Below, in pieces: positions 2,824 through 42,276 of a stretch of DNA of 44,592 nt. Position 1 is the first letter of the stretch; each line of letters starts with the position of its first letter. This stretch comes from Escherichia phage BEK1-1: the sequence record MN158212.1, one strand, 5' to 3'. The notes under the pieces are model-generated. The model was not told the DNA's origin, ran no database searches, and was given only the letters and a program-made list of their open reading frames with translations. The translations under genes and the position numbers were made by a program.

Positions 2824-2927
2824 TTATTGCTGATGGTGCATTGGTATAGCTGCCGTGCAATACTGTATAAATCCACATGATACTAAAATTATAACCGGAA
2901 CACTCCAGAACAGTAGTTACATGATAT

Positions 2928-2985
2928 ACACAGTAATATATATAATAATAATAATAATATTAAAAGGTTGATATATATAGATATT
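2928..2985. repeat. AT-rich element copy 1: ACACAGTA-(ATA)n-TAAAAGGTTGATATATATAGATATT
   Basis: Near-identical copy at about 29732..29797 with a different number of ATA units; core TATCAACCTTTTA (minus strand) fits the IHF consensus WATCAANNNNTTR. Confidence 0.7.
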
Positions 2986-3104
2986 TTAATGTAACTATTG
3001 CGTAAATTGGCGTAACAGAGCGTATATCATTTTTCGCGGATGGGATTGCATACATCGAGTTACATCGGTTACGTGTAACTGTGATTTGTGGTGAAATTGG
3101 CGAT

Positions 3105-24044: not shown

Positions 24045-24551
24045 TTATAGCTTACCAATCACAGACTCCAGCGCTTCCTTCATGCTATCAACGTCGTTAG
24101 CTGTGGAGTTATTGCTAATTGTAATCTCCTGCGGCTTATCAATCCCTAACTCTTTACCAACGATTGTGGAGCTGATGATGCCTGCAACGCCAAGCTGATA
24201 CTTCTGCTCATAAATTACGTTATCAATGAATTCCATCACATCAGAGTATCCAGCCTCAGTACGCCAGCGTGCGAATCTATTTATATTAACTCCCATGAAT
24301 AGCGCCAGCCCGGTTAATGTGAACACTCGCGGCTTGTGTACAAGGTTTTCACTAACAACGCCCTGGAAAGCCGCCGTCTCAATAGCTTTGATTGCCTCAC
24401 TCTCTGCCCATGAGAAGTATCGAACAGCGAAATCAAAAACTTCCTCGGGAGTGTACTTGCGGTTGATTGCCACCATGGCAATATCGCCATACTTCTTGTT
24501 GTATAGCGCCTTGAAATTTCCCTCACCCATTTTTAATGCTGCTTTGCTCAT
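24045..24551 (-). CDS. terminase small subunit (probable)
   Basis: 168 aa immediately upstream of the large subunit; ...FTLTGLALFMGVNINRFARW... resembles the helix-turn-helix DNA-binding region of small subunits. Confidence 0.6.
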   Translation of the reverse strand: MSKAALKMGEGNFKALYNKKYGDIAMVAINRKYTPEEVFDFAVRYFSWAESEAIKAIETAAFQGVVSENLVHKPRVFTLTGLALFMGVNINRFARWRTEAGYSDVMEFIDNVIYEQKYQLGVAGIISSTIVGKELGIDKPQEITISNNSTANDVDSMKEALESVIGKL

Positions 24552-24593: not shown

Positions 24594-24618
24594 GAAAAAA
24601 AGCCCTCAAGCGAGGGCT
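24594..24618 (-). terminator. intrinsic terminator between the early small gene and the terminase genes
   Basis: Minus strand GCCCTC-GCTT-GAGGGC followed by TTTTTTTCG. Confidence 0.7.
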
Positions 24619-24662
24619 AAAAACAACGAGAGAAACGAAACTTAACAGGGGTATAACACTTT

Positions 24663-24845
24663 TTACTTTCGCTCACGAACGTAAGCTACAAGGAATTTGT
24701 GAGTATCAGGGTCAGCGCCTGACATCTCTTTTACTTTCGCTACCGCATCCTCAGCGCTGATTGCGGCAACTGACGCGATATAATCTTGAGTACAATTCTT
24801 GCACAAGCGGCCCATTAAGCGAATGGACAACTTCACATCCCACAT
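24663..24845 (-). CDS. hypothetical protein (60 aa)
   Basis: AAGGAG RBS 7 nt before the ATG; begins 16 nt after the tRNA 3' end. Confidence 0.45.
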   Translation of the reverse strand: MWDVKLSIRLMGRLCKNCTQDYIASVAAISAEDAVAKVKEMSGADPDTHKFLVAYVRERK

Positions 24846-24860
24846 AATGAACTCCTTTAT

Positions 24861-24938
24861 TGGCGCTCCGCACTGGATTCGAACCAGTAACCTACGACTT
24901 AGAAGGTCGTTGCTACTATCCTATTGAGCTAGCAGAGC
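24861..24938 (-). tRNA. tRNA-Arg (anticodon UCU)
   Basis: Minus strand reads GCTCTGC...TAGCTCAATAGGATAG...ACGACCTTCTAAGTCGT...CTGGTTCGAATCCAG...GCGGAGC-G-CCA; acceptor stem pairs 7/7 (one G-U); anticodon loop CT-TCT-AA; T-loop GGTTCGAATCC. Confidence 0.85.
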
Positions 24939-25161
24939 CTTGAATGAGTCCCGGTTACGGCTCCGGGGCTGCCTGATACAGCCGATTAATCTGCCTATTT
25001 GCGCTAGGTCTTAATGCCGCATGCGCTACTTAATGAGCAGCGGACTTAGTAGTTGCGCTCCGTGCGCCGTTACCACTTGGTGGTCTCGTTTGTCTACGAA
25101 ATTAATATTAGATACTTCCACTCAGAGATGCAAGTCCTTTTTAACAATTGCGGTCTGACTG

Positions 25162-25416
25162 TTAGTTTTTTGAGCTTCTAATCCTTTGAAGCCTTTCGTA
25201 TGCAATCTCATCGAGCAGGCCACGACAAATCATCATATCCACCTTGCTGTTCTCGACGTGCTTGCATTTCTTGCATATTAGCTTCGTTTTGGAGCCATCC
25301 AAACAGTAAGCATCCTCGAACCATTTAATATCACGAAAGTAAACGTAATGATGCTTCTTGCAACCGTGCAAAATCTGCCTAAATGTTCTCATGCTGCCAC
25401 CATAAAGTAAGCCCAA
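25162..25416 (-). CDS. hypothetical Cys/His-rich small protein (possible zinc ribbon)
   Basis: HGCKKHH...C...CKKCKH...C pattern. Confidence 0.35.
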   Translation of the reverse strand: MGLLYGGSMRTFRQILHGCKKHHYVYFRDIKWFEDAYCLDGSKTKLICKKCKHVENSKVDMMICRGLLDEIAYERLQRIRSSKN

Positions 25417-25449
25417 GTAATCAGCCCCGCGATAAACCAGATAGTAAAT

Positions 25450-25689
25450 TCACTCATAAAGACTATTCCCATTCTCGTCATGACCGACACGACCCTTAAG
25501 ATATCCACTAGTCCAAACAAAGCGATCTCGACTAATGATTGTAAAAACCGGTTCCCACATCTTAGAAATCAACGTCGCAACATGCTTATCGTCCTTACGC
25601 TGCTTTGGCGATAGCTTGCTGTACTCTTCGTTCAACTTTGCGGCCTGACGTTTAACTGCGTTGAAGTGTGCTTCTGATAATCCGAACAT
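25450..25689 (-). CDS. hypothetical protein (79 aa)
   Basis: ORF in the early small-gene array. Confidence 0.35.
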   Translation of the reverse strand: MFGLSEAHFNAVKRQAAKLNEEYSKLSPKQRKDDKHVATLISKMWEPVFTIISRDRFVWTSGYLKGRVGHDENGNSLYE

Positions 25690-25886
25690 TATAATACTCC
25701 ACCAGCAAAGACGCAGCGAGACTCAAAGCCAATAACTGGTTTAGCTATAACGCAGCGAGAATGAAAACCCATGATTCCGTTAACAACTACTTTTCTTGAA
25801 TTGAAAACTAAACCCAAAGACTCATCGTAATTATTTTCTGCGATATGTGATTTAACTTTGGTCACTTCATTTGATTTGTTGTTCAT
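25689..25886 (-). CDS. hypothetical protein (65 aa)
   Basis: Start moved to internal ATG (MNNKSNEV...), because the track start codon lies inside the promoter -10 (GGCATATAATC). Confidence 0.4.
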   Translation of the reverse strand: MNNKSNEVTKVKSHIAENNYDESLGLVFNSRKVVVNGIMGFHSRCVIAKPVIGFESRCVFAGGVL

Positions 25887-25919
25887 TTGCTCTATCTCTC
25901 TCATTGTGCTGATGTGGTG

Positions 25920-25965
25920 ATTATATGCCATCCATGGCGACTGCGTTTAGCAATTCGTGCTATTT
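25920..25965 (-). promoter_or_regulatory. box promoter (AAATAGCACGAATTGCTAAA, 20 nt, TATAAT)
   Basis: Direct reading of the reverse complement. Confidence 0.55.
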
Positions 25966-26276
25966 ATAGAATGACTTAACAAAAGCCTCAGGTGTCACGC
26001 CTTGCTTGTACGGCTTGATTAAATCCTTAATGATGAACCAGTGGAAAGTCTTCATATCAAAGACCAGTCGTTCACATGCGATAACATATTCAGTGAAGAT
26101 CATTGTTTCTTCTCCCGTTCCATCCATATTTGCGCCAGCTCGTAGTAAGCCATGGCCTCTTCGCCAGTTTTGGCTTCGTCCTGCATTCGCTTACACCACT
26201 CTACTGGGCTTTCTTGTGCTTCCATGATGAATCACCTTACTTAAATTATCGTTCGTTAGAATGCGTTTTAGGCGCG

Positions 26277-26678
26277 TTAAATCTTGTTCAATTGCTCTAG
26301 GATTTCGTACGCCATCTCTCTGGCCTGCTCCTCGGTTAAGTGGATGGTGTGAACCTGCGGCTCGTCACGCATCCCGCAAGCCTGGGCAATGATGAATGTT
26401 GCGTAGCCGTCGAAATTGTTGACTTGAAGTTTCGGCTGTGATTGGTTGAATTTTGTTTCTTTAGCAGACAAATCCACCTTAACCTCTCTCCATTGCCAAA
26501 GTAGACCATTTAATGGAACTCGTTCCCCAACCTTAAACTTTGGTTCACCATTATCAGAAAGGCAATCGCTGGTGTCTTTGCTTACAATAAATTCGCCATC
26601 TTCAGATGCGAGGCCATATACCGTCTGACCAATAGGAACTGAATCAGTGTAACTTCCTGTGCAAGTAAACTTAGTCAT
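26277..26678 (-). CDS. hypothetical protein (133 aa)
   Basis: ORF with box promoter upstream. Confidence 0.4.
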   Translation of the reverse strand: MTKFTCTGSYTDSVPIGQTVYGLASEDGEFIVSKDTSDCLSDNGEPKFKVGERVPLNGLLWQWREVKVDLSAKETKFNQSQPKLQVNNFDGYATFIIAQACGMRDEPQVHTIHLTEEQAREMAYEILEQLNKI

Positions 26679-26699
26679 TGTTGTAACCTCATATCGTTT

Positions 26700-26755
26700 C
26701 GATGGGGTAACTATAACAAATTACCCCAATACAGTTTTAGCAATTCGTGCTATTT
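26700..26755 (-). promoter_or_regulatory. box promoter (AAATAGCACGAATTGCTAAA, 20 nt, TATAGT, leader ACCCCATCGAAACGA)
   Basis: Direct reading of the reverse complement. Confidence 0.55.
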
Positions 26756-26900
26756 AGCATTCTTTGACAACTTCACACCACTTAATAGTTCCCCCAAGAA
26801 CCCTCTGCTGATCAAATGTTTTATGAAACCCATCGTACACTCGAACATGCTTAACGCTATTGAACTTTCCTGTGTAGTATGTGTGAACGTAAATCATTTG

Positions 26901-27128
26901 TTAGTCGCCTTGTGCTGATATTTTTGAGAATGCTACCATTGCTTCACCAGACATTGATCTGATAAAAACTCTTCCGCCATTTTCTTTTACGTGCATATGC
27001 ACGCCAGTCTTCGGTGACTTAACTGTAAGGATTCCGCGTTCGTTTACTACAGCAATCAACTTCATGCCTCGTCGGAATCCAAAAATATTACAAGCTCTGT
27101 AGCTTGCAAAATCAACATTTAGAATCAT
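26901..27128 (-). CDS. hypothetical protein (75 aa)
   Basis: ORF; overlaps the next gene as ATGA. Confidence 0.35.
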   Translation of the reverse strand: MILNVDFASYRACNIFGFRRGMKLIAVVNERGILTVKSPKTGVHMHVKENGGRVFIRSMSGEAMVAFSKISAQGD

Positions 27129-27352
27129 TTCTTTGTAGCCTTATCCCAATTATTAAGGTATGCCGCATTGACGCTGAATGCCTCGTACTGACGTGATGAC
27201 TCGAAGTCGCTAACGTCGAACTGCTGGTTTTTGATTTGGCCGCGAACCTCATCCACCACACTGCGTTGGCCGTCGCAGCGTGTTGGCATGAATGAGTTCA
27301 TCATGGACTTCAGCTCTGCTGCTTGCTTGTCTGACAGGTTAATAGTAATCAT
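27125..27352 (-). CDS. hypothetical protein (75 aa)
   Basis: ORF with variant box promoter upstream. Confidence 0.35.
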   Translation of the reverse strand: MITINLSDKQAAELKSMMNSFMPTRCDGQRSVVDEVRGQIKNQQFDVSDFESSRQYEAFSVNAAYLNNWDKATKK

Positions 27353-27380
27353 TTTCTATCCTCTCGTTTGGTGTGAACTA

Positions 27381-27427
27381 ACTATAACAAAACCCGCCGT
27401 AGCTGGTTATGCAAAAGGTGCTATTTA
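27381..27427 (-). promoter_or_regulatory. box promoter, half-box variant (AAATAGCACCTTTTGCATAA, about 20 nt, TATAGT)
   Basis: Direct reading of the reverse complement. Confidence 0.4.
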
Positions 27428-27681
27428 CCAACCTGAATTGATTTAGACGATTCATGAATCATCTTCTGCCCGTAAAGCTCTTTAGCCTTCTGTAGTGACT
27501 CAATAGAGTCATTAAGATCAGTTAAGTAATCCTTGTGGCCACGCAATCCAGTACAAAGCATCTTCTTTAATGCGTGCTGAGTGGCCGGGTCAGATACGCC
27601 AAACGCATCAAGAACGCGATAAACATCTACTGTTGTTACCGTGCCATCAATGCCAATAATTTCTCGCTCGTACTTGCTCAT
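27421..27681 (-). CDS. hypothetical protein (86 aa)
   Basis: ORF with GAGGA RBS. Confidence 0.4.
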   Translation of the reverse strand: MSKYEREIIGIDGTVTTVDVYRVLDAFGVSDPATQHALKKMLCTGLRGHKDYLTDLNDSIESLQKAKELYGQKMIHESSKSIQVGK

Positions 27682-27873
27682 ATATCAATCCTCGTCACTG
27701 TGCCGCCATGCGTCTTAAGCATGAGGTTTGCGTATTTTTCGTCTACATAGTGCAGGAACATATCAATTCCCCTGCTGCTGAATTTATGTTCGTATATCGT
27801 CACTTAACTTACACTCGTGTGGTTGATGTGGGGATTATACCAGTCAGGATGAATCCCCTTTTAACAATTATTG

Positions 27874-28092
27874 CTATTTGATAACCCCGTACTTAACCGC
27901 GTTGGCGAGGGTAATATACTCCTTAGCCGTCAGCGTTGAGTGAAAGGTGAAGATTCCGGCCTGGATACCCTTAACCAGCGATTCAGTCTTGATCCCTGAA
28001 ATGTTGACGATCCCGAGACCGCCAACAGTGCGAAGAACCACTCCGGAAACCACACAAAACTCCACACCATTACTATTCGTATACACCTGCAT
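27874..28092 (-). CDS. hypothetical protein (about 72 aa)
   Basis: Start at internal ATG (MQVYTNSNG...) after AAGGAG. Confidence 0.4.
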   Translation of the reverse strand: MQVYTNSNGVEFCVVSGVVLRTVGGLGIVNISGIKTESLVKGIQAGIFTFHSTLTAKEYITLANAVKYGVIK

Positions 28093-28105
28093 TATAATTT
28101 CTCCT

Positions 28106-28363
28106 TCATTGCCTCTCCGCCTCTTCCGCCGCAAGGATTAATGCCGCCGCCAGCTTGCGTGCTTGCTCAGGACTGTATTGCATAATCGTCTGACAATCTC
28201 CGCATTCATCCGGGTCGAAATCCAGACATACAACGGGACCTCGATCTCTTTTTGTAATGCTTATCTCAGCTTGGTCTAAGTAAAGATCTTCAATACGAAC
28301 AGCTTCCATATTCATTTCCTCTTTGTTTTCGATTGGGTAATCATAGCTAACTACCCGATCCAT
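28106..28363 (-). CDS. hypothetical acidic protein (85 aa)
   Basis: ORF with box promoter immediately upstream. Confidence 0.4.
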   Translation of the reverse strand: MDRVVSYDYPIENKEEMNMEAVRIEDLYLDQAEISITKRDRGPVVCLDFDPDECGDCQTIMQYSPEQARKLAAALILAAEEAERQ

Positions 28364-28385
28364 TGTTTAGCAATTCGTGCTATTC
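28340..28385 (-). promoter_or_regulatory. box promoter (AATAGCACGAATTGCTAAA, 20 nt, TATGAT, leader ACCCAATCGAAAACA)
   Basis: Direct reading; the box overlaps the TAG stop of the upstream gene. Confidence 0.55.
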
Positions 28386-28904
28386 GCCGATAATAAGCGA
28401 TTTAGCTTTCCGGTAGAAATCGACAGCCCTCTCCACCTCTTCCTCATTGTACCGCAAGTGGTATGGTAGTCTACTAGCGTGCTCACCTTCGTAAGTTTTG
28501 AAGTTAGGTTGCCAGTACTCATCAATGATAGCTGGGTGGACGTAAATCTTATCCCCAATGAGGAAAACTAGATTCATTTCCTCTAGATCAGGGATTAGTT
28601 CGTCCTTAATGCGAGCTATGATATCAAGGCATCCTACGAACGGCTTAATCTTTCGAGCCTCCTCGTGTACAGACTTGACACCCACCACTCCCCTTCCGTT
28701 TCTTGCCATCTTCCTGATCAGCTTAATCAGAACTCCCAGCGCTTCATCTCTGTAGACTTCCGATGCATCAGGCTGGCCCCATAGGTGCTGAACATGCCGA
28801 TAACCGTTAGCATTGATTGCAACCCGCAGTGGCGGTAGCCCATCCTGGATAGCAATATTCATAATCTGCTCGTCCGTCAGTTTCTCTTCATCGAAATTAA
28901 ACAT
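28380..28904 (-). CDS. hypothetical protein (174 aa), short paralogue of the 527-aa P-loop protein
   Basis: N-terminus MFNFDEEKLTDEQIMNIAIQDGLPPLRVAINANGYR and C-terminus ...NGRGVVGVKSVHEEARKIKPF...LIGDKIYVHP align with the ends of ORF 31388..32971. Confidence 0.5.
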   Translation of the reverse strand: MFNFDEEKLTDEQIMNIAIQDGLPPLRVAINANGYRHVQHLWGQPDASEVYRDEALGVLIKLIRKMARNGRGVVGVKSVHEEARKIKPFVGCLDIIARIKDELIPDLEEMNLVFLIGDKIYVHPAIIDEYWQPNFKTYEGEHASRLPYHLRYNEEEVERAVDFYRKAKSLIIGE

Positions 28905-29452
28905 CAGTTAGTCTCCTTAATCATTTCATAGTAACGGGCCAGGGCAATGAGAGCGCCTTCTTTCTGCTCGCCTTGCAGGTCGATAACGTTAGGTGTGATC
29001 TTGAGTAACCGAGCCTTGAACCTTTCAATGATGGCGGCCTCCTTCTCTGCTTCCTGCTTCTTCTTCTCACGATTTCCAGTCCAGTGAGCGCCGTTCTCAA
29101 TATAGATTACCAGGTATTTATCAGCACCATCGCCGTCGAAATTACCCGGCCTGGTTTGCTCGCCTTCATCGTCAATCCAGATGAACTTGTAGCGCGCTCG
29201 CTTGTTGGCGTCTCGTAGTTCAGTCATTCGCGATACGGTATTGTAGATGTACGAGTTCTTGAGTTCAGGCATCGACCTGTCTGCCAGGTTTAGGATCTCG
29301 TCAGTCTCTTCGTCATACTCCATTTCGGGATATGGCTTGCCGCGAACAAGTTTGAATATCTGGCTTACCGGAACTTTGAACTCGCCGTTCTCAGACGCCA
29401 TTGCGTTACGGACCATCTCACGGATAACTTCGCCAAGTGTTAATTTCTGCAT
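28904..29452 (-). CDS. hypothetical protein (182 aa)
   Basis: First gene leftward of divergent control region B. Confidence 0.4.
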   Translation of the reverse strand: MQKLTLGEVIREMVRNAMASENGEFKVPVSQIFKLVRGKPYPEMEYDEETDEILNLADRSMPELKNSYIYNTVSRMTELRDANKRARYKFIWIDDEGEQTRPGNFDGDGADKYLVIYIENGAHWTGNREKKKQEAEKEAAIIERFKARLLKITPNVIDLQGEQKEGALIALARYYEMIKETN

Positions 29453-29731
29453 GTTGATACCTCGTTTCGTTTACTTCGTTTCAGTGATTGCCATCTTGCC
29501 ACTTGTTTACGTGTCGGTCAACGTATTTTTATGTCTATTTCATCGCGGATACGTTTTTCGGCCTCCAAGTTAGCGTCAGCACTGGTTGTAAACGTGCCGT
29601 ATCCCCTGTGTACAGTTTTGTAGGGTACTTTCCTATATATGTGCCTTTTTATTCCTACAATGTCATCCCATTCTGACAAGTGTCAGAATATCTGCACGGA
29701 ACATATCAACTATTGCCTCCGTGAGCGGTAT

Positions 29732-29797
29732 ACACAGTATACATATATATAATAATAATAATAATAATAAAGTAAAAGGTTGATATATATAGATATT
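29732..29797. repeat. AT-rich element copy 2: ACACAGTA-(ATA)n-TAAAAGGTTGATATATATAGATATT
   Basis: Near-identical to 2928..2985, with a longer ATA run. Confidence 0.7.
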
Positions 29798-29983
29798 ATA
29801 TTGTATATCGTGTGTATATCTCGCGTAAAAACGTAGGTTAGTGGTCACTAACTTTTGTGACGACACTGAGTATACGGAGGATACGCGTATATCGATGAGA
29901 ACCTTACCGATTGGTAAAAAATCAACTTGTATGGTAGTCCATCCATCTTTCATTCACTCACTCACCACTTTATTTTACTTTTC

Positions 29984-30069
29984 GCAACAATCAAAGACAT
30001 CATTGCATCTGAAGCAATATTGCTGTATATGCAATAATCATGTGAATCATTGCAATATCTGCAACAATC
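29984..30069. repeat. iteron-like cluster (GCAACAATC x2, ATCATTGCA x2, palindrome GCAATATTGC)
   Basis: Direct reading of gcaacaatcaaagacatcattgcatctgaagcaatattgctgtatatgcaataatcatgtgaatcattgcaatatctgcaacaatcc. Confidence 0.5.
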
Positions 30070-30085
30070 CATAAATCTGACGAAT

Positions 30086-30129
30086 GGCACTTTTTGCTAA
30101 AGACACTGGAGGTCATGGAGGATATAGTT
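30086..30129 (+). promoter_or_regulatory. box promoter, half-box variant (CACTTTTTGCTAAA, about 20 nt, TATAGT, leader AACTCATCAAAACGAGG)
   Basis: Direct reading. Confidence 0.45.
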
Positions 30130-30154
30130 AACTCATCAAAACGAGGAGATAGAA

Positions 30155-31387: not shown

Positions 31388-32971
31388 ATGTTCGATTTCA
31401 ACGAAGATAAACTATCTGTTGAACAGGTTATGGCAATTGCTGCCGCAGAAAACCTCCCGCCCCTGCGCGTCGCCATTAATGCTAATGGCTATCGCCAGTC
31501 CCAGTCATTCTGGAAAGCACCAGTCGAGATTGATGCAGCTAATGACAAGTATCCAGTAATCTCACTAGGTAATGACATTGATGTTGTTGGTAAGCTGTCA
31601 GCTAATATTGCCCGATCTGTTCAGTTCCCTGAGTCGTCAGCTTACATGCACTTCCTGGGGTGTATTTCCGCTGCAATGCTGGGTCGATTTACTGTTGAGT
31701 ATCACGGAACGCAGCAACCGACTTCGCTTTACGTCGTAACAAGCCAGCCACCATCCACTGGTAAATCAGCCATTAACTCGCTATCGATTGCTCCAATGAT
31801 TGCTGAGACTCAGCGACTAAATGAAGTTAGAAAGCGTGAGCGCAAGAAAATTATGGCAAAACTATCTGCATTATCGAAAGAGATGAAACAGGAAAAATCT
31901 CCGTCAGAGATGGCCTCTCTTTTTGAGGAGAAGGAGGAGTTGGAGGAAAAACTCGAGAAACTATGCGATATCGTTTTCCCAGTATCAGATACCACACCAG
32001 AAGGTCTGGCCCGAATCAACAACCGCCAGGGCAACTTTGCTGTAATCTCTGATGAGGCAACGAGTGTAAACTCACTACTTGGCATGACCTATGGTGACGG
32101 CTCAAAGAAAACGAACAGCGAACTGGTACTGAAGGCATGGGATGCTGGTAACGTATCTATCGCTCGCGCTAACGCTGAAAACAACATGAGTTTTGTTGCT
32201 ATGGGTTGCATCTCTGTAATTGCGCAGGATGAGACAATCAACGCTATCATGAACGCTGGCGCGCGTGGTATCGGTGTATCTGAGCGTTTCCTGCTTGTAC
32301 GTGAAAAGTCATTCCTTGGCGAGCGTGTATTCGTTGATGAAAATGGCGAATCGACTTATGAACCAATTGATGCCGGGTTGAAGGCTGATTACTTCCGTTT
32401 AGTTCACGAAATCATGAATGAGCAAGATGTAAAGTTGACGGTGAGCAACTCAGCGATGAAATATCTCAACCGTGCACGTCAGGAAATGGAGCCTCATCTT
32501 GCTGACGGCGGTAAGTATTCCCACACAATGTTGCGCGGCGCGCTGGGTAAGTTCGATAAACAGGCTATAAGGATTGCAGCCGTTCTTCACACAGTTCGCA
32601 ACTGGTTCAACCCTAACGGTGGGAGTCCACAGAAGTCCAGAGAAATCGAGCTCGACACCATGCAAGAGGCTGTGATTATGTTCCAGGAACTGAGTAAGAC
32701 TTATTTGTCATCTGCCAACGCTGCGGGTCACGCTGGCGACAATGCAGAGATGAATAAGCTGATTGATATCCTGATTAAGCAAGGCAAAAACGGGAAAGGA
32801 GTAGTAGGTATTCGTTCGCTATATGAAGCGGCTCGCAAGGTTAAGCCATTCGAGGCTCAGGCTGGAGTGATGACGAAGATTAAAGATCACCTGCTGCCAA
32901 TGCTTGATGAGAAAAACTATACGTGCCTGATTGGTGATAAGGTTTACATTAATCCGCGACTTCTGGGGTGA
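31388..32971 (+). CDS. P-loop NTPase-like protein (527 aa), long paralogue of ORF 28380..28904
   Basis: Walker-A-like ...TSQPPSTGKSAI..., Walker-B-like ...FAVISDEAT... about 100 aa later; N- and C-terminal about 45 and 65 aa match the 174-aa protein. Confidence 0.5.
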   Translation: MFDFNEDKLSVEQVMAIAAAENLPPLRVAINANGYRQSQSFWKAPVEIDAANDKYPVISLGNDIDVVGKLSANIARSVQFPESSAYMHFLGCISAAMLGRFTVEYHGTQQPTSLYVVTSQPPSTGKSAINSLSIAPMIAETQRLNEVRKRERKKIMAKLSALSKEMKQEKSPSEMASLFEEKEELEEKLEKLCDIVFPVSDTTPEGLARINNRQGNFAVISDEATSVNSLLGMTYGDGSKKTNSELVLKAWDAGNVSIARANAENNMSFVAMGCISVIAQDETINAIMNAGARGIGVSERFLLVREKSFLGERVFVDENGESTYEPIDAGLKADYFRLVHEIMNEQDVKLTVSNSAMKYLNRARQEMEPHLADGGKYSHTMLRGALGKFDKQAIRIAAVLHTVRNWFNPNGGSPQKSREIELDTMQEAVIMFQELSKTYLSSANAAGHAGDNAEMNKLIDILIKQGKNGKGVVGIRSLYEAARKVKPFEAQAGVMTKIKDHLLPMLDEKNYTCLIGDKVYINPRLLG

Positions 32972-35265: not shown

Positions 35266-35293
35266 TTCAATCTCCTCTCGTTTCTATAAAACA

Positions 35294-35339
35294 ATAATAG
35301 CCGCTTTCGCGGCTACTGTTTTAACAAAAGGTGCTATTA
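35294..35339 (-). promoter_or_regulatory. box promoter, variant, with hairpin TAGCCGC-GAAA-GCGGCTA inside the 20-nt spacer
   Basis: Direct reading; the hairpin may also terminate transcripts from the upstream phosphoesterase gene. Confidence 0.4.
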
Positions 35340-36491
35340 GTATTTGGATCCAGGGTTTGCGTCACGAAGCATTTCAACAGGAATGCTCACTCGACTAACT
35401 TCTCCATACTTCTTGTGATACGTAATAACGTTTGCACTACGCCCAGAGAAGTACCCGCCCTTGGATGAGTACTCATCTTTTGCAGCAAGTGTCTGGTGTT
35501 GCTCAATAATCATCAAGCTAGTTTCCTTAACCGCTCTGTGGTGCAGGTGGCCTAGGTGCGTGTATGCGAACTTGGATTTACCAAACATCTCACGATACTT
35601 AGCAATTATTGCTGATTCAACTCTGGAGAAGTTAGCGCAATGCCCGTGATGCATGGCAATCATAACGTCTCCAAATTCATATGCGTAGTAAGGGGAAACT
35701 TCGCGATTCACTTCAACTCGCTCATTTTCAATAAATACTTCATGAAACATCTCGCGCAACCATAATGAAGATACCGGGTTGTGATTTCCCTCACAAATCA
35801 ATAGCTTAACCTTTTTATGTTTAACCAGGCACATGCTTATGGCTGCCTTGATTAATTTAATCTGAGTCCGAATCATTCGGAATAATCTAGTATCAGCAGA
35901 AAGAATGTGACCACTCATTGGGGTTACAGCTTTCATTGAGTCGTAGTGAGCCTCATCCCCTAAAAAGTTAATTATGCATTCATCGCTGTTCGGGCTCATT
36001 GCCACGGCGCTGCTGAACCAGTCCAATGCTAATTTCTCAGCAATCTTGGTGTCATAATTGTCACCACCTTCCTCTGCGCAAGCAAGCATTCCAATGTGAT
36101 GGTCTGTGATGGTGTAGAGGTTGAGAATGTCAGAATTAGTTATCTCACCTGAGTGGTTAACAGCATCGTACTTAGGTAGCTCTTTCTTAAGCTCCTCAAC
36201 AACAATTTGCATCAGCTCTTGCTGTCGCTCCTTGTCAACTTCTGATTTAACCCACTGACCTTTAATCTCACCATCGGCACCAATTAAGCTAGACACACCT
36301 TTGACAGCGTAACCTTGAGGAATTAGGTTGCTTACATCACGGCCGTGCCCCTCACCCCGTTTTGCCAGCTTACTACGACGCAATTCAACGTTGCGAATGT
36401 TCATTCCGTACTTCTCTGCGATTGCCTTGTTGGTCATTCCATTCGCCAGCTCTTCGCGTAGTTGTTCGTTGGTGATTTTTGCAGTTGCCAT
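35337..36491 (-). CDS. calcineurin-like metallophosphoesterase with N-terminal helix-turn-helix domain
   Basis: N-terminal ...MTNKAIAEKYGMNIRNVELRR... (HTH-like); phosphoesterase-like motifs ...ITDHHIG..., ...GDEAH..., ...EGNHN..., ...MHHGH..., ...GHLHH... Confidence 0.55.
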   Translation of the reverse strand: MATAKITNEQLREELANGMTNKAIAEKYGMNIRNVELRRSKLAKRGEGHGRDVSNLIPQGYAVKGVSSLIGADGEIKGQWVKSEVDKERQQELMQIVVEELKKELPKYDAVNHSGEITNSDILNLYTITDHHIGMLACAEEGGDNYDTKIAEKLALDWFSSAVAMSPNSDECIINFLGDEAHYDSMKAVTPMSGHILSADTRLFRMIRTQIKLIKAAISMCLVKHKKVKLLICEGNHNPVSSLWLREMFHEVFIENERVEVNREVSPYYAYEFGDVMIAMHHGHCANFSRVESAIIAKYREMFGKSKFAYTHLGHLHHRAVKETSLMIIEQHQTLAAKDEYSSKGGYFSGRSANVITYHKKYGEVSRVSIPVEMLRDANPGSKY

Positions 36492-37696: not shown

Positions 37697-38110
37697 TGAA
37701 ATCATTTCTTCAAATGCTGCCAGGAAGCCCTCTCTACCGTAGGCAACTCCAGCGAAACCTCCTGATTCTCTCACGCTTTTAAGGAAGGACTTCTGTTCGT
37801 CACTGACTGGACTAGCTTGAGTTTTTCCCGCCCTCTTTAGCTCTATGGCCCCAAAAGGGTACTTTCCTCTAAGTGATTCAGGTATCAGGAATAAGCAGTC
37901 CGAAACCCCCTTAAGCAATCCTTTGGCCTGGTCCTTCCTTGCTTGTCCAATGGTCTTCTTACCCTCATTCACGCAGTGGAAAAATACCATCTCTGGATAG
38001 TTATACTTAACCCAATCAGAGCAAAAGATTTGTTCGTCATCCTCTTTCGGGCATGACTTAACCGGGCCAGGGTAAAACTCAATGTAATCAACTTTGTCTG
38101 TAATGTTCAT
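37691..38110 (-). CDS. VRR-NUC domain nuclease
   Basis: ...GVSDCLFLIPE...GAIELKRAGKTQASPVSDEQKSFL...GGFAGVA fits the VRR-NUC PD-(D/E)XK pattern; coupled to the helicase gene. Confidence 0.6.
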   Translation of the reverse strand: MNITDKVDYIEFYPGPVKSCPKEDDEQIFCSDWVKYNYPEMVFFHCVNEGKKTIGQARKDQAKGLLKGVSDCLFLIPESLRGKYPFGAIELKRAGKTQASPVSDEQKSFLKSVRESGGFAGVAYGREGFLAAFEEMISK

Positions 38111-40101
38111 AACAATTCTCCAAAATTCTTAAAAGCTATTATATCATTTCCTTTGCCATTCTTGCGGTGTGTCACCTGGACTGGCGCACGAAACTTATCT
38201 GCGTTAGTCATAATCATTCTGGCATTCTTCAGTCTGCCAATTCGTGCTGCTTCAGCTCGATTTTCAATGTGAGCAAGGCAAAAGTTTTTCCAAAGCACAC
38301 TACAAACCCTGTGGTCAGATTCTGGATTGAAGAACTCCCAAGCATTAAACCGCTCTCCGTTGTGCGCCATGATATTGTACTTAACAACAATTCCCGTTTG
38401 GTTCTTACTTAAGCCAACCTGAAAATCATAAACACGAAGGTAATCACCACGTCGATACATTTTTCCAGTAAGATTGGCATTCGGGTCTTTAAGCATTTCT
38501 CCGCATTCACGACAAACTTTTGCTGCTATGTCATTTTTAGTTCCACAACCTTTCTTGATTACCGCCTTTGTTTGTTGGTCGGTAATATCATCACATGTCG
38601 TGAACTGGAAAAAGTGATCGCATCTAACACCATCAATCTTATTGCTACAGCGTCTAGCAAATGGCGAGTTCTCATATCCACATTTCGGACACTGGCGAAC
38701 CTCATCACCACCTTTTCTTGAGGATTTAAACTTCTCAGCCTGAATCTCCTCAATTATTGGGTCAAAGTAAAGCTCTGCCATGTCATCAAGCGCCCCGGCA
38801 AAGTCTAATACCAAGTGGTCCTCCTTCTTGAACCCAGCATCTATGTGCGCCTTTTTTAGTTTTCGCATGCCACGACCAAGAAGCTGAATCATTAAGGTTA
38901 TACTGCCAATCTTGCGTAGTATGACGCTAGTATCCCACAGTGGTTGGTTTACGCCCGTGGTTAGACATCCAATCTGAAAGATAATCTTGTACTTTCCAGT
39001 CTGGCAATCAGCAAGAATCTCCCTGCGCTTCTTCTCCCCCGTAGAATCAGTAATGATAGCGTAAGGGTATCCATCTGGGAGTGCCTCGGCGGCTTCATCA
39101 CAATGTAGTTTGCCAGCGCATGTTACCAATGCGGCATTGCGAGTCTCAAGTATTTTTACAACAAAACCCATTATCTTTTGAGTCATGGATTGGTTGTCGT
39201 GAATCTTTGCAGCCATTGCGTCCATTTCTTTCTTGCTGAAATCCTTCACGCCATCGCTTCCGTCTGGCGCAAACTCACTAAGGTCATAACCAAGGTCACC
39301 AACCTCGCCGTAAACAGTTGGTACCACGAATCCCAAATCAACAAGGTAATTTGTTGGAACCTGAATCACAGTTTTTCGCCAGAACCCACGGATGTTTGGA
39401 TTGCTAACGACGATATGGTCATTATTTCGATAAGGGCTACCAGTAAGGCCGAATATACGAAGCTCCCGCCCGTATTTTTCACGGCAGCGACGCTTCATCT
39501 CAGTGATTATTAACGTGTACTGCGCGCGACCAGTGCCAAGCAACCCTGTGTTTACGCCATCCTTAAAAACCATCTCGCCTTTCTTTGTGCTCATCTGCTC
39601 AAATGTTTCTTCATTCTCTTCGGCTTCCACGATATCCATGTGATCGACCATGTGGCATTCATCTATAGCTATAACGGCAGGAACATAGTCACCAAGCCCC
39701 TTAAACAAGCCGTTAGCTGCCGTGCCCTCACTAGCAACTATGGTTGGGTAGTAAACTGATTTAACGTTAAGTCCGGCGCAATAGACGCTGTTGCGGATGC
39801 CGAAATTACGAAGTTCTTCTGAGTTCTGGCTTATTATCTCTGACTGGCGAGAAAGAACCATGTAAGGCAACCCTAATTGCTCCATTCGCTTTCCAATCAT
39901 GGCGAGAATGATTGTCTTACCAGCAGATACTGAAAGGTCTGCGATAAATGGGGCCTCGTACTTCCCAATAGCCTTTCCGATAGCATCAAATGTAACGCAC
40001 TGGAACTCGTAAGGAGTTATCTCTCCAAACTGATAATCTTTCTGAATCTGTTTAATTCTTTCTTTATCAAAGTTTGCAACCTGCTTCTCGATAGGCAACA
40101 T
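38107..40101 (-). CDS. DExH-box (SF2) helicase with C-terminal Cys-rich zinc-ribbon region
   Basis: Motif I-like ...SVSAGKTIIL..., motif II ...IDECHMV...; C-terminal ...CPKCGYEN...C...C... cluster. Confidence 0.7.
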   Translation of the reverse strand: MLPIEKQVANFDKERIKQIQKDYQFGEITPYEFQCVTFDAIGKAIGKYEAPFIADLSVSAGKTIILAMIGKRMEQLGLPYMVLSRQSEIISQNSEELRNFGIRNSVYCAGLNVKSVYYPTIVASEGTAANGLFKGLGDYVPAVIAIDECHMVDHMDIVEAEENEETFEQMSTKKGEMVFKDGVNTGLLGTGRAQYTLIITEMKRRCREKYGRELRIFGLTGSPYRNNDHIVVSNPNIRGFWRKTVIQVPTNYLVDLGFVVPTVYGEVGDLGYDLSEFAPDGSDGVKDFSKKEMDAMAAKIHDNQSMTQKIMGFVVKILETRNAALVTCAGKLHCDEAAEALPDGYPYAIITDSTGEKKRREILADCQTGKYKIIFQIGCLTTGVNQPLWDTSVILRKIGSITLMIQLLGRGMRKLKKAHIDAGFKKEDHLVLDFAGALDDMAELYFDPIIEEIQAEKFKSSRKGGDEVRQCPKCGYENSPFARRCSNKIDGVRCDHFFQFTTCDDITDQQTKAVIKKGCGTKNDIAAKVCRECGEMLKDPNANLTGKMYRRGDYLRVYDFQVGLSKNQTGIVVKYNIMAHNGERFNAWEFFNPESDHRVCSVLWKNFCLAHIENRAEAARIGRLKNARMIMTNADKFRAPVQVTHRKNGKGNDIIAFKNFGELL

Positions 40102-40149
40102 ATCTGAATTCCTATAAAAATTGTCTTGTAGCGTTTAATTGAGTACAAT

Positions 40150-40191
40150 ATTACCATCAAATCATGATGACTTTTAACAAAAAATGCTATT
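40150..40191 (-). promoter_or_regulatory. box promoter, half-box variant, upstream of the helicase gene
   Basis: CAATAGCATTTTTTGTTAAA, 20 nt, AATATT on the reverse complement. Confidence 0.35.
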
Positions 40192-40202
40192 GAGGTAATA
40201 AG

Positions 40203-40688
40203 ATGAATGCAGTCGACAAGCGAACCATTAACGGTAATAACGGAACCATCCGCACTGAAGACAAAAAGCAACGGAAACGACCTTCAGGTTACTACGTTTT
40301 GAAAGATGAGGTAAGGGCGGGTTTACGTGCGCGGCTGGAAATTGTTCTTGATTTCTTCGGCACAAAGGCAAATATGGCAAAGCAATTAAAGGTAACACCA
40401 CAGGCTGTAGAGGAATGGTTTAAGCGCGGCATGATTTCTGCGCGCGGGGCTCAACTCTCACACAACTACTACAAGCGAACCGGGGAAGGCTTTCGCGCCA
40501 CATTCTGCCGACCAGATCTGCAATTCGACGGCAACGGCAAGCCTCTTACTCTACGTTGCAAAAAGCGTCACATGCTGCGTGTTGTTACTGAGGCTGAATT
40601 AGCCACCAAGCCAGAGTGTCGATCATGGCGCAAGATTAAGGAAGAGAATCGCAAAAAGCGAGAAGCAGAGAAAAATAGCACGAATTGA
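40203..40688 (+). CDS. putative HTH DNA-binding regulator (161 aa)
   Basis: ...FGTKANMAKQLKVTPQAVEEWFKRGMIS... resembles a Cro/CI-type helix-turn-helix; basic N- and C-termini. Confidence 0.45.
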   Translation: MNAVDKRTINGNNGTIRTEDKKQRKRPSGYYVLKDEVRAGLRARLEIVLDFFGTKANMAKQLKVTPQAVEEWFKRGMISARGAQLSHNYYKRTGEGFRATFCRPDLQFDGNGKPLTLRCKKRHMLRVVTEAELATKPECRSWRKIKEENRKKREAEKNSTN

Positions 40689-42211: not shown

Positions 42212-42276
42212 TGCCTGAAAGATGATACAATCCAATTTAGCAATTCTTGCTATTTTACAAATGGAGACTTTACACA

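Follow-up and report, generated by a model that had tools for sequence, protein, structure and literature searches.

What does the block of small genes in front of the terminase genes of a T1-like phage consist of, and by what signals is it read? The question arises for Escherichia phage BEK1-1 (MN158212.1), analyzed here as a window comprising the whole stretch of 44,592 nucleotides (nt). From an open reading frame (ORF) listing and a reading of the strand, 17 co-directional small genes (g1 to g17, encoding 22 to 182 amino acids (aa)) were located on the minus strand at 24663-29452. A sequence-only reading, made without database searches, had described this array as early genes, many with box promoters of their own, and as the most likely place for undescribed inhibitors of the host and its defences. 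We find the array to be real but ordinary and standard for a T1/Rtp-like phage, and we assign a probability of roughly 0.7 to its being the usual pre-terminase accessory-gene block of the T1/Rtp-like phages (Drexlerviridae, Braunvirinae). The boxes are not special to the array; they belong to a previously published repeat that occurs throughout the genome and across the family. As far as could be found in the literature, the new elements are a fixed promoter-like architecture around the repeat, a role of this architecture at cassette boundaries, and a winged-helix mini-paralogue (g2) of a phage ATPase.

Position and Counterparts of the Array

Positions 24600-29600 match about 40 Escherichia phages of the species Veterinaerplatzvirus vv12210I (Drexlerviridae, Braunvirinae) at 90.9% identity over 90% of the length; Rtp, CEB_EC3a, JeanPiccard and others match less continuously. 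Judged by sequence, the source is a Veterinaerplatzvirus-like Drexlerviridae phage. In a simple ORF map the minus-strand block is continuous from 29452 to about 5140 and leads from the small genes through the terminase genes (small subunit, then large) to those for head and tail. An AT-rich divergent gap (hub B) and a tRNA gene flank g1 to g16; g17 follows the tRNA and is the last small gene ahead of the terminase small subunit (Table 1). A strong terminator sets the array apart from the terminase genes; it has a stem of seven base pairs (bp) with five G-C pairs, a 4-nt loop and a run of seven T residues, as expected of an intrinsic terminator. The sequence TGgTATAAT is found 3' of this terminator, just before the terminase small subunit gene.

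The counterparts of the array are orf77-orf55 in T1 and rtp1-rtp18 in Rtp, which share its position, orientation, closing terminator and interspersed box modules. In T1, 23 small genes and seven box modules occupy the interval from the hub to the terminase small subunit and are followed by a terminator, so that the array there measures 7.8 kilobases (kb) versus 4.8 kb here. Individual genes also correspond: g14 is T1 orf59 (E 3e-18), g17 is T1 orf56 (E 2e-12), and g9 is T1 orf4 (70% identical to T1 47636-47776), which in T1 lies on the far side of the hub. Genes g5, g6, g7, g11, g12 and g14 are held in common with Rtp. T1 has no separate gene that corresponds to g1 (DUF7174) or to g2. Unlike the T1/Rtp arrays, the present array has no polynucleotide kinase, deoxynucleotide kinase, HNH endonuclease or Stp-like peptide, and it carries cassettes (g4, g8, g13 and g16) that are missing in most close relatives.

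Reality of the Small Genes

The sequence-only reading had counted at least 12 minus-strand ORFs of 40 to 180 aa, several of them overlapping by ATGA or TGATG. This understates the number of genes, while the overlaps hold up: checked base by base, seven junctions overlap, four of them by ATGA (g5/g6, g7/g8, g11/g12 and g15/g16), one by TGATG (g1/g2), one by TAATG (g13/g14) and one by 8 nt (g14/g15). A recognisable Shine-Dalgarno sequence stands in front of most array genes. Three tiny genes proposed in the same reading exist after small shifts of their coordinates (g12, g11 and g9), with PHROG matches and ratios of nonsynonymous to synonymous change (pN/pS) of 0.08 to 0.38.

The small genes are taken to be real because of their PHROG and Pfam matches, their pN/pS values, and the intact g5 ORF found in 104 phage records (60-95% identity). 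PHROG matches were obtained for 13/17 genes, every family being of unknown function, and g1 and g7 match the Pfam families DUF7174 (E 1.6e-49, 167.9 bits) and DUF7180 (E 7e-21, 75.1 bits), each with a gathering cut-off of 27 bits. The earlier statement that none matches a recognised protein family is therefore true only in part. Neither DUF is mentioned in the literature searched. None of the 17 genes is an orphan. Pooled pN/pS was 0.08-0.48 in all 16 genes with homologues in eight relatives (g8, which has none there, is outside the set) and 0.04 in the terminase small subunit; the comparisons with the eight relatives are not independent of one another, and their direction is uniform. The array products are small, fast-evolving, functionally uncharacterised accessory proteins.

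If g5, g15 and the region around the g13 start were not translated and were conserved as a leader or spacer, this would fit the weak Shine-Dalgarno and GTG start of g5, its low pS (0.14) and individual pN/pS values reaching 0.95, and the 22 codons and usual lack of annotation of g15. We consider this reading very unlikely, given that all 41 codons of g5 stay in frame in the 104 records, down to 60-80% identity, and span the full 41-residue phrog_12148 profile, and that g15 is kept in 7/7 Braunvirinae relatives with downstream ATGA coupling and a pooled pN/pS of 0.30. The start of g13 is uncertain, with alternatives at 25904 or 25931. For g3, which has the Shine-Dalgarno AGAGG 8 nt upstream, a 66-aa homologue in CEB_EC3a and a pN/pS of 0.48, the short start is favoured because an 85-aa form would cross the promoter module.

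The Box Module as a Promoter-Like Unit

Boxes had been placed at about 25946, 26736, 27408 and 28366. All four are present, and a fifth, at 27860-27879, had been missed. Using the 20-mer AAATAGCACGAATTGCTAAA with up to three mismatches, 11 occurrences were found in the window versus 0.01 expected, and a looser scan gave 16 strong copies and one weaker copy (31314) with a -10-like hexamer. Every box copy that has such a hexamer is oriented like the gene downstream of it. All five array boxes are minus-strand elements, separated by 74-79 nt from the start codon that follows, and in 5/5 cases the stop codon of the upstream gene falls within the box or abuts it; box 28366-28385, for example, contains the TAG stop of g2 and lies 76 nt from the ATG of g3. 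Only one of the 17 modules is in the structural block (19 kb, 43.5% of the genome; P = 8.5e-4), the others standing in front of small accessory genes or of genes for replication or recombination.

When phage TLS was reannotated in 2024, 18 intergenic 21-nt repeats with the consensus aaATAGCACnnnTTGnTAAAA were listed, oriented in the direction of transcription “approximately 76” nt before start codons, and “similar repeats” were mentioned for T1, Rtp and Rogue1 (PMC11447400). The array boxes agree with this direct repeat in consensus, intergenic site, direction and distance. Three of the five match 13/13 specified positions of the consensus, box 27860-27879 matches 12 and box 27407-27426 matches 11. 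In Citrobacter phage Stevie the same elements are annotated “repeat_region”, an annotation also carried by the Stevie copy of module 2, which is kept in TLS and LL5 as well; module 4 has 91-96% identity to a module in T1, IME347 and LeonhardEuler. Relative to the TLS text consulted, the additions made here are a 22-nt spacer to a -10 element, the CATCGAAACGA start region, a hairpin in the spacer, the near absence of the modules from the structural block, and the clustering of homology breakpoints.

From the end of TTGnTA to TATAnT, 22-23 nt were measured in 15/16 strong copies and 21 nt in the remaining one, and the weaker seventeenth copy has 22 nt. The spacer is 22 nt in 15/23 box copies of T1, and in the arrays of the eight relatives it is 22 nt in 42/50 copies and 23 nt in four. 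A conserved CATCGAAACGA-like motif follows 6-7 nt past the hexamer, its A being the expected transcription start, and a Shine-Dalgarno and ATG follow downstream. The hexamers of the five array modules (TATAAT, TATAGT, TATAGT, TATAAT and TATGAT) are close to the sigma-70 -10 consensus TATAAT, and TGn precedes three of them. No sigma-70 -35 hexamer is found 16-18 nt upstream of the -10; at 17-18 nt AAAAnn or TAAAAn stands instead, with TTGCTA 22 nt upstream. A scan with a generic sigma-70 consensus gave no excess of sites over shuffled sequence (14 versus 13.9 expected).

Two identities for the box were tried and rejected. As a sigma-70 -35 element it is ruled out by the 22-nt spacer. The sigma-54 promoter consensus is TGGCAC-N5-TTGCW; the box reads TAGCAC-N3-TTGC, with AG for GG and a spacing 2 bp shorter.

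Numbered from the predicted start, the box covers about -52 to -33, and within it the dyad TAGCA-N5-TGCTA has its centre near -42.5. Class II activators have this geometry, as does lambda cI at PRM. By sequence, the box modules resemble activator-dependent promoters, such as class II CRP/FNR promoters (-41.5), the T4 MotA-dependent middle promoters and lambda PRM (cI at OR2, about -42), in combining a good -10 with no usable -35 and a presumptive factor site over the -35 position, and the 10-bp centre-to-centre spacing of the dyad is as for a helix-turn-helix (HTH) dimer. The box sequence itself is unrelated to the CRP, FNR or cI operators, and the T4 MotA box differs in lying at -30, not -42.

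A different function for the boxes must be weighed at this point. The TLS authors offered a stoperator, an enhancer-binding site or an UP-like element as options for the repeat, and found only three sigma-70-like promoters (PMC11447400). The boxes could be operators or roadblocks (“stoperators”), or RNA-processing or 3'-end elements, in which case TATAnT would be there by chance or would belong to the loop of a hairpin. A spacing of 22 nt does not fit a sigma-70 -35, there is a significant excess of hairpins from box to predicted start, some boxes have no -10, and a terminator-like stem followed by a U-tract overlaps module 27424 and likewise module 35337. However, the 22-nt distance from box to hexamer is kept whether the hairpin encloses the hexamer or sits upstream of it, the TGn of an extended -10 is present in 5/17 copies, and a CAT start context lies 6-7 nt past the hexamer with Shine-Dalgarno and ATG at a fixed distance. 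Without the modules, moreover, almost no promoters would be left for the non-structural genes, to judge from the TLS account. A non-promoter function is regarded as unlikely, and the modules are read in what follows as putative promoters.

Mosaicism and Probable Cassette Exchange

Alignment of the array with its closest relative breaks into five pieces (90% coverage, 90.9% identity), while a structural 5-kb segment aligns as a single piece (93.1%). Genes g3, g4, g6, g8, g13 and g16 are each present in some of the phages compared and absent from others of the eight relatives, as is the first, N-terminal half of g10. More distant phages (T1, TLS, Stevie and IME347) match at the box modules only, over 52-57 nt at 88-96% identity. 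Clusters of homology breakpoints fall in module zones in 10/44 cases versus 9.5% of the region covered (p = 0.007), an enrichment that is inflated by cross-hits between paralogous modules. Because of these distant matches and breakpoints, the modules look like linkers at which cassettes are swapped.

A Mini-Paralogue of the DUF3987 ATPase

Gene g2 is related to a 527-aa DUF3987 ATPase encoded across hub B. Its residues 1-55 are ∼40% identical to the N-terminus of the ATPase and its residues 59-127 are ∼46% identical to the last 69 residues; the whole ATPase core is missing. The putative ATPase of T1 gives the identical match pattern. The g2 model has the topology alpha1-beta1-alpha2-alpha3-beta2-beta3 and is similar in fold to solved winged helices, as a winged-helix domain should be, with moderate confidence (predicted local distance difference test score (pLDDT) 74.5; 44-74.5 over five models).

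Since the ATPase core is missing, g2 is read as probably a DNA- or partner-binding mini-paralogue that modulates the DUF3987 ATPase or its DNA sites. Its model suggests a paralogue of a replication-type ATPase that binds DNA, not an inhibitor. AAA+ initiators of the ORC/Cdc6 type also have a C-terminal winged helix, but g2 differs from them in having no ATPase core. A further comparison is the phage P4 alpha origin-binding domain and its regulator Cnr.

A Proposed Transcription Programme

The labels “promoter”, “early” and “activator-dependent” are inferred for the modules and the array. The array would consist of six predicted transcription units. Unit 1 (g1-g2) would be read from hub B without a box. 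Box 28366-28385 would drive g3-g4, box 27860-27879 g5-g6, box 27407-27426 g7-g9, box 26736-26755 g10-g12, and box 25946-25965 g13-g16, the tRNA and g17. Each composite module would comprise, in order, the box, the 22-nt spacer, a TATAnT -10 and a start at the A of CATCGAAACGA. The predicted starts, 7 nt past each -10, fall at about 28333, 27827, 27374, 26703 and 25913. Genes inside each unit would be translationally coupled, and the strong terminator would stop array transcription before the terminase genes. The modules would thus be promoters without a -35, dependent on a dimeric DNA-binding factor at the TAGCA-N5-TGCTA dyad, with the factor near -42.5 in a class-II-like activator position. 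They may double as conserved linkers for cassette exchange between phages.

The box-binding factor is most likely phage-encoded; if so, the box units would be delayed-early, after an immediate-early g1-g2 unit. A Cro/C2-like HTH gene (40203-40685, plus strand; weak Pfam P22_Cro match) diverges from a helicase gene (38107-40101, minus strand), and the 100-nt gap between them (40102-40202) holds a box (40190, minus strand). The T1 counterpart has a regulator at 35979-36431, a box at 36444 and a helicase gene from 36525. From this layout, which would suit autoregulation, the HTH protein is the first, if weak, candidate for the box-binding factor.

A host protein could take the same place. The consensus for Lrp is yAGhAwATTwTdCTr (PMC5554404). 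Its arms (yAGhA and TdCTr) and the 5-bp length of its centre are like those of the box, and 11/15 positions match in 5/5 array boxes; if host Lrp bound the box, phage expression would be tied to the nutritional state of the host. That consensus is degenerate, however, the box centre mismatches it, and the invariant C of GCAC clashes with position 6. The motif was also picked out by comparing the box with a list of transcription-factor consensus sequences, which makes chance resemblance likely, and a single Lrp site at -42.5 is not known as a typical Lrp activation geometry. With a phage-encoded candidate adjoining a box here as in T1, binding by Lrp is judged quite improbable, and a phage-encoded factor is preferred.

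Several points count against the proposed scheme, in addition to the inflated breakpoint enrichment and the moderate g2 model. A spacer hairpin occurs in most copies, with a stem that varies by copy and often encloses the -10 hexamer (mean z versus shuffles -2.4 in the window and -2.8 in T1), and it could have a function at the RNA level or as a cruciform. In T1, boxes at 120, 8362, 25021 and 34902 have no -10 partner, and in the window the near-perfect box 42236-42255 (minus strand; AAATAGCAAGAATTGCTAAA) has a terminator-like hairpin (AAACCTACCGAAGGAGGTT) in place of a -10. Data on Drexlerviridae transcript starts, timing, transcriptomes or gene essentiality were not found in the literature searched.

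Two related observations concern module structure. In two module types (27381-27405 and 35290-35320) a hairpin and T-run like those of an intrinsic terminator are present, the tail of which is the -10 hexamer. One of the T1 boxes without a -10 precedes the terminase small subunit gene, with 17 nt between box and ATG.

The Anti-Defence Question

The “early” and “anti-defence” readings of the array are plausible proposals. An early or accessory role has indirect support: the terminator insulates the array from the terminase genes, the box module is shared with replication and recombination regions and is nearly absent from the structural block, the gene content is mosaic, and the same slot in relatives holds a Stp-like peptide, polynucleotide kinase and deoxynucleotide kinase. 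The Rtp, Stevie and T1 arrays carry a Stp-like peptide (rtp6 and Stevie gp66) and/or polynucleotide kinase and deoxynucleotide kinase. In this particular phage, support for anti-defence from sequence is nil.

The sequence-only reading had suggested remote homology searches and structure prediction; structures were predicted for g1 and g2. No likeness to known anti-defence or host-takeover proteins was found among the array ORFs in PHROG, Pfam, PADLOC, NCBIfam or PDB sequence searches: PADLOC and NCBIfam returned nothing meaningful for the array proteins, and PDB searches gave nothing below E = 0.05 either with single sequences (g1, g2, g6, g10, g14 and g16) or with profiles (g1 and g2).

Could the array nonetheless be, for the most part, a set of early inhibitors that serve host takeover and anti-defence? 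It is hub-proximal, terminator-insulated, mosaic and fast-evolving, and inhibitors of this kind occur among the small early genes of T4, T5 and T7. The contents of the slot in relatives point the same way, as does the statement of the BASEL authors, who put differences in restriction sensitivity among Drexlerviridae down to “unknown factors”. On the other side, no ORF belongs to an annotated anti-restriction or anti-defence PHROG or Pfam family, the PDB searches were empty, and g2 looks like a replication-linked DNA-binding protein. Relatives have a clear homologue of T4 Stp (rtp6) and a polynucleotide kinase, recalling the Stp / PrrC / Pnk-Rnl module of T4, but the source phage has neither. 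Such a set is possible but doubtful, and the array is better described as the family's usual accessory-gene block.

Gene g5, the one array peptide comparable in size and location, was tried as a Stp analogue and rejected: BLASTP against rtp6 gave four identities in 13 residues, and Rtp has a g5 orthologue as well as a separate rtp6. No other candidate for a Stp-like peptide was seen in the array.

A more ambitious combination, in which the modules are Drexlerviridae-specific activator-dependent promoters (using the HTH protein, another phage factor or Lrp) and recombination linkers for accessory cassettes, g2 is a decoy or regulator of the DUF3987 replication ATPase, and at least one of g4, g8, g13 and g16 is an undescribed defence inhibitor, is speculative and, taken as a whole, rather unlikely.

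Further Features of the Region

Coordinates are collected in Table 1. The g1 homologues carry DUF7174 in 62/62 cases, every named or long-contig match being a T1-like phage. An AF2 (AlphaFold2) model of g1 (pLDDT 78.5) predicts an alpha/beta N-domain and a C-terminal helical hairpin, and fold searches with it against the PDB gave no significant match. Gene g6 matches positions 151-229 of 235 in phrog_2452 and 172-243 of 246 in phrog_17613. It is a stand-alone domain present in 770 phage records, found elsewhere at the C-terminus of “ATPase / P-loop NTPase” PHROGs; no Pfam domain was detected in a full-length “ATPase” relative (Pq0 gp39). The 86-aa g6 homologue of CEB_EC3a (NC_047812.1), gp06, is annotated “terminase large subunit”.

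Gene g8 has no PHROG or Pfam match, and its homologues (59-80% identity in 45 other records) often adjoin polynucleotide kinase. In g10, residues 1-67 correspond to phrog_18786 and residues 75-133 to phrog_7411; most relatives share only the C-terminal 59 aa. Gene g16 has no PHROG match, is found among the eight relatives in JeanPiccard only, and occurs in 26 phage records, some auto-labelled “transcriptional repressor”.

The 220 nt between g16 and the tRNA (24939-25161) hold no convincing ORF and give no Rfam match, the tRNA being the only Rfam match in the region; a degenerate half-box, CAATTGTTAAAA, lies near 25150, and CEB_EC3a has a 44-aa gene annotated at the counterpart position. The g1 leader (∼300-350 nt, within 29453-29830) contains no box, and relatives have no annotated gene there; sigma-70-like sites at 29829-29800 and 29776-29749 face g1. 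Both divergent hubs (2918-3007 and 29722-29819) contain a common AT-rich element, (TAA)n followed by AAAAGGTTGATATATATAGATATT, with 83% identity over 47 nt, and the hub B copy is also kept in Rtp, G8 and CEB_EC3a. The shared element could hold promoters for early transcription, an origin of replication or a signal for packaging. Note also that the record “Campylobacter phage A110b” (MG065688.1, UNVERIFIED) is a Braunvirinae genome of the coliphage type.

Table 1. Coordinates of the array genes, box modules and flanking features in the window.
Feature	Coordinates	Strand	Description
DUF3987 ATPase	31388-32968	+	527 aa; across hub B from g2
Hub B	~29453-30154		AT-rich divergent gap; relatives annotate no gene there
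g1	28904..29452	-	182 aa; the small gene next to hub B, not preceded by a box; Pfam DUF7174
g2	28380..28904	-	174 aa; N-terminal segment and predicted winged helix
Box module 5	28323..28385	-	box 28366-28385; -10 TATGAT 28340-28345; predicted start ~28333; upstream of g3
g3	28106..28309	-	67 aa; phrog_13316, E 1e-13
g4	27874..28092	-	72 aa; phrog_34564, E 2e-42; in 2/8 relatives
Box module 4	27817..27879	-	box 27860-27879; TGgTATAAT, -10 at 27834-27839; 7-bp hairpin GGGGATT/AATCCCC
g5	27678..27803	-	41 aa; GTG start; phrog_12148 full-length, E 3e-28
g6	27421..27681	-	86 aa; pN/pS 0.16
Box module 3	27364..27426	-	box 27407-27426; terminator-like hairpin then TTTTGTTATAGT; -10 at 27381-27386
g7	27125..27352	-	75 aa; Pfam DUF7180; pN/pS 0.29
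g8	26901..27128	-	75 aa; cassette missing from 8/8 close relatives
g9	26754-26897	-	47 aa; phrog_3955, E 7e-21; pN/pS 0.38
Box module 2	26693..26755	-	box 26736-26755; TGtTATAGT, -10 at 26710-26715; hairpin GGGGTAA/TTACCCC, then CATCGAAACGA
g10	26277..26678	-	133 aa; two PHROG modules fused
g11	26100-26225	-	41 aa; phrog_1312, E 5e-15; pN/pS 0.25
g12	25960-26103	-	47 aa; phrog_22596, E 7e-37; pN/pS 0.08
Box module 1	25903..25965	-	box 25946-25965; -10 TATAAT 25920-25925
g13	25689..25886	-	65 aa; internal GFxSRCV duplication; in 3/8 relatives
g14	25450..25689	-	79 aa; phrog_303; pN/pS 0.19
g15	25389..25457	-	22-aa hydrophobic peptide MSEFTIWFIAGLITWAYFMVAA; coupled to both neighbours
g16	25162..25392	-	76 aa; Cys/His-rich (CxxH ... 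CxxC); variable cassette
tRNA-Arg (anticodon TCT)	24861-24938	-	Rfam
g17	24663..24845	-	60 aa; phrog_2919; pN/pS 0.14
Intrinsic terminator closing array	24601-24618	-	AGCCCTCgcttGAGGGCT + T7
Terminase small subunit	24045-24551	-	in minus-strand block; phrog_606, Pfam GP3_package

Significance

About half of the genes of the T1 family have no known function. The variable cassettes of the array are reasonable first targets for an anti-defence screen, but they do not rise above the generic prior. The fixed architecture of the module turns the puzzle of the 21-nt repeat into a directly testable model, and it marks the boundaries of cassettes, which is useful for engineering or gene deletion in T1-family phages.

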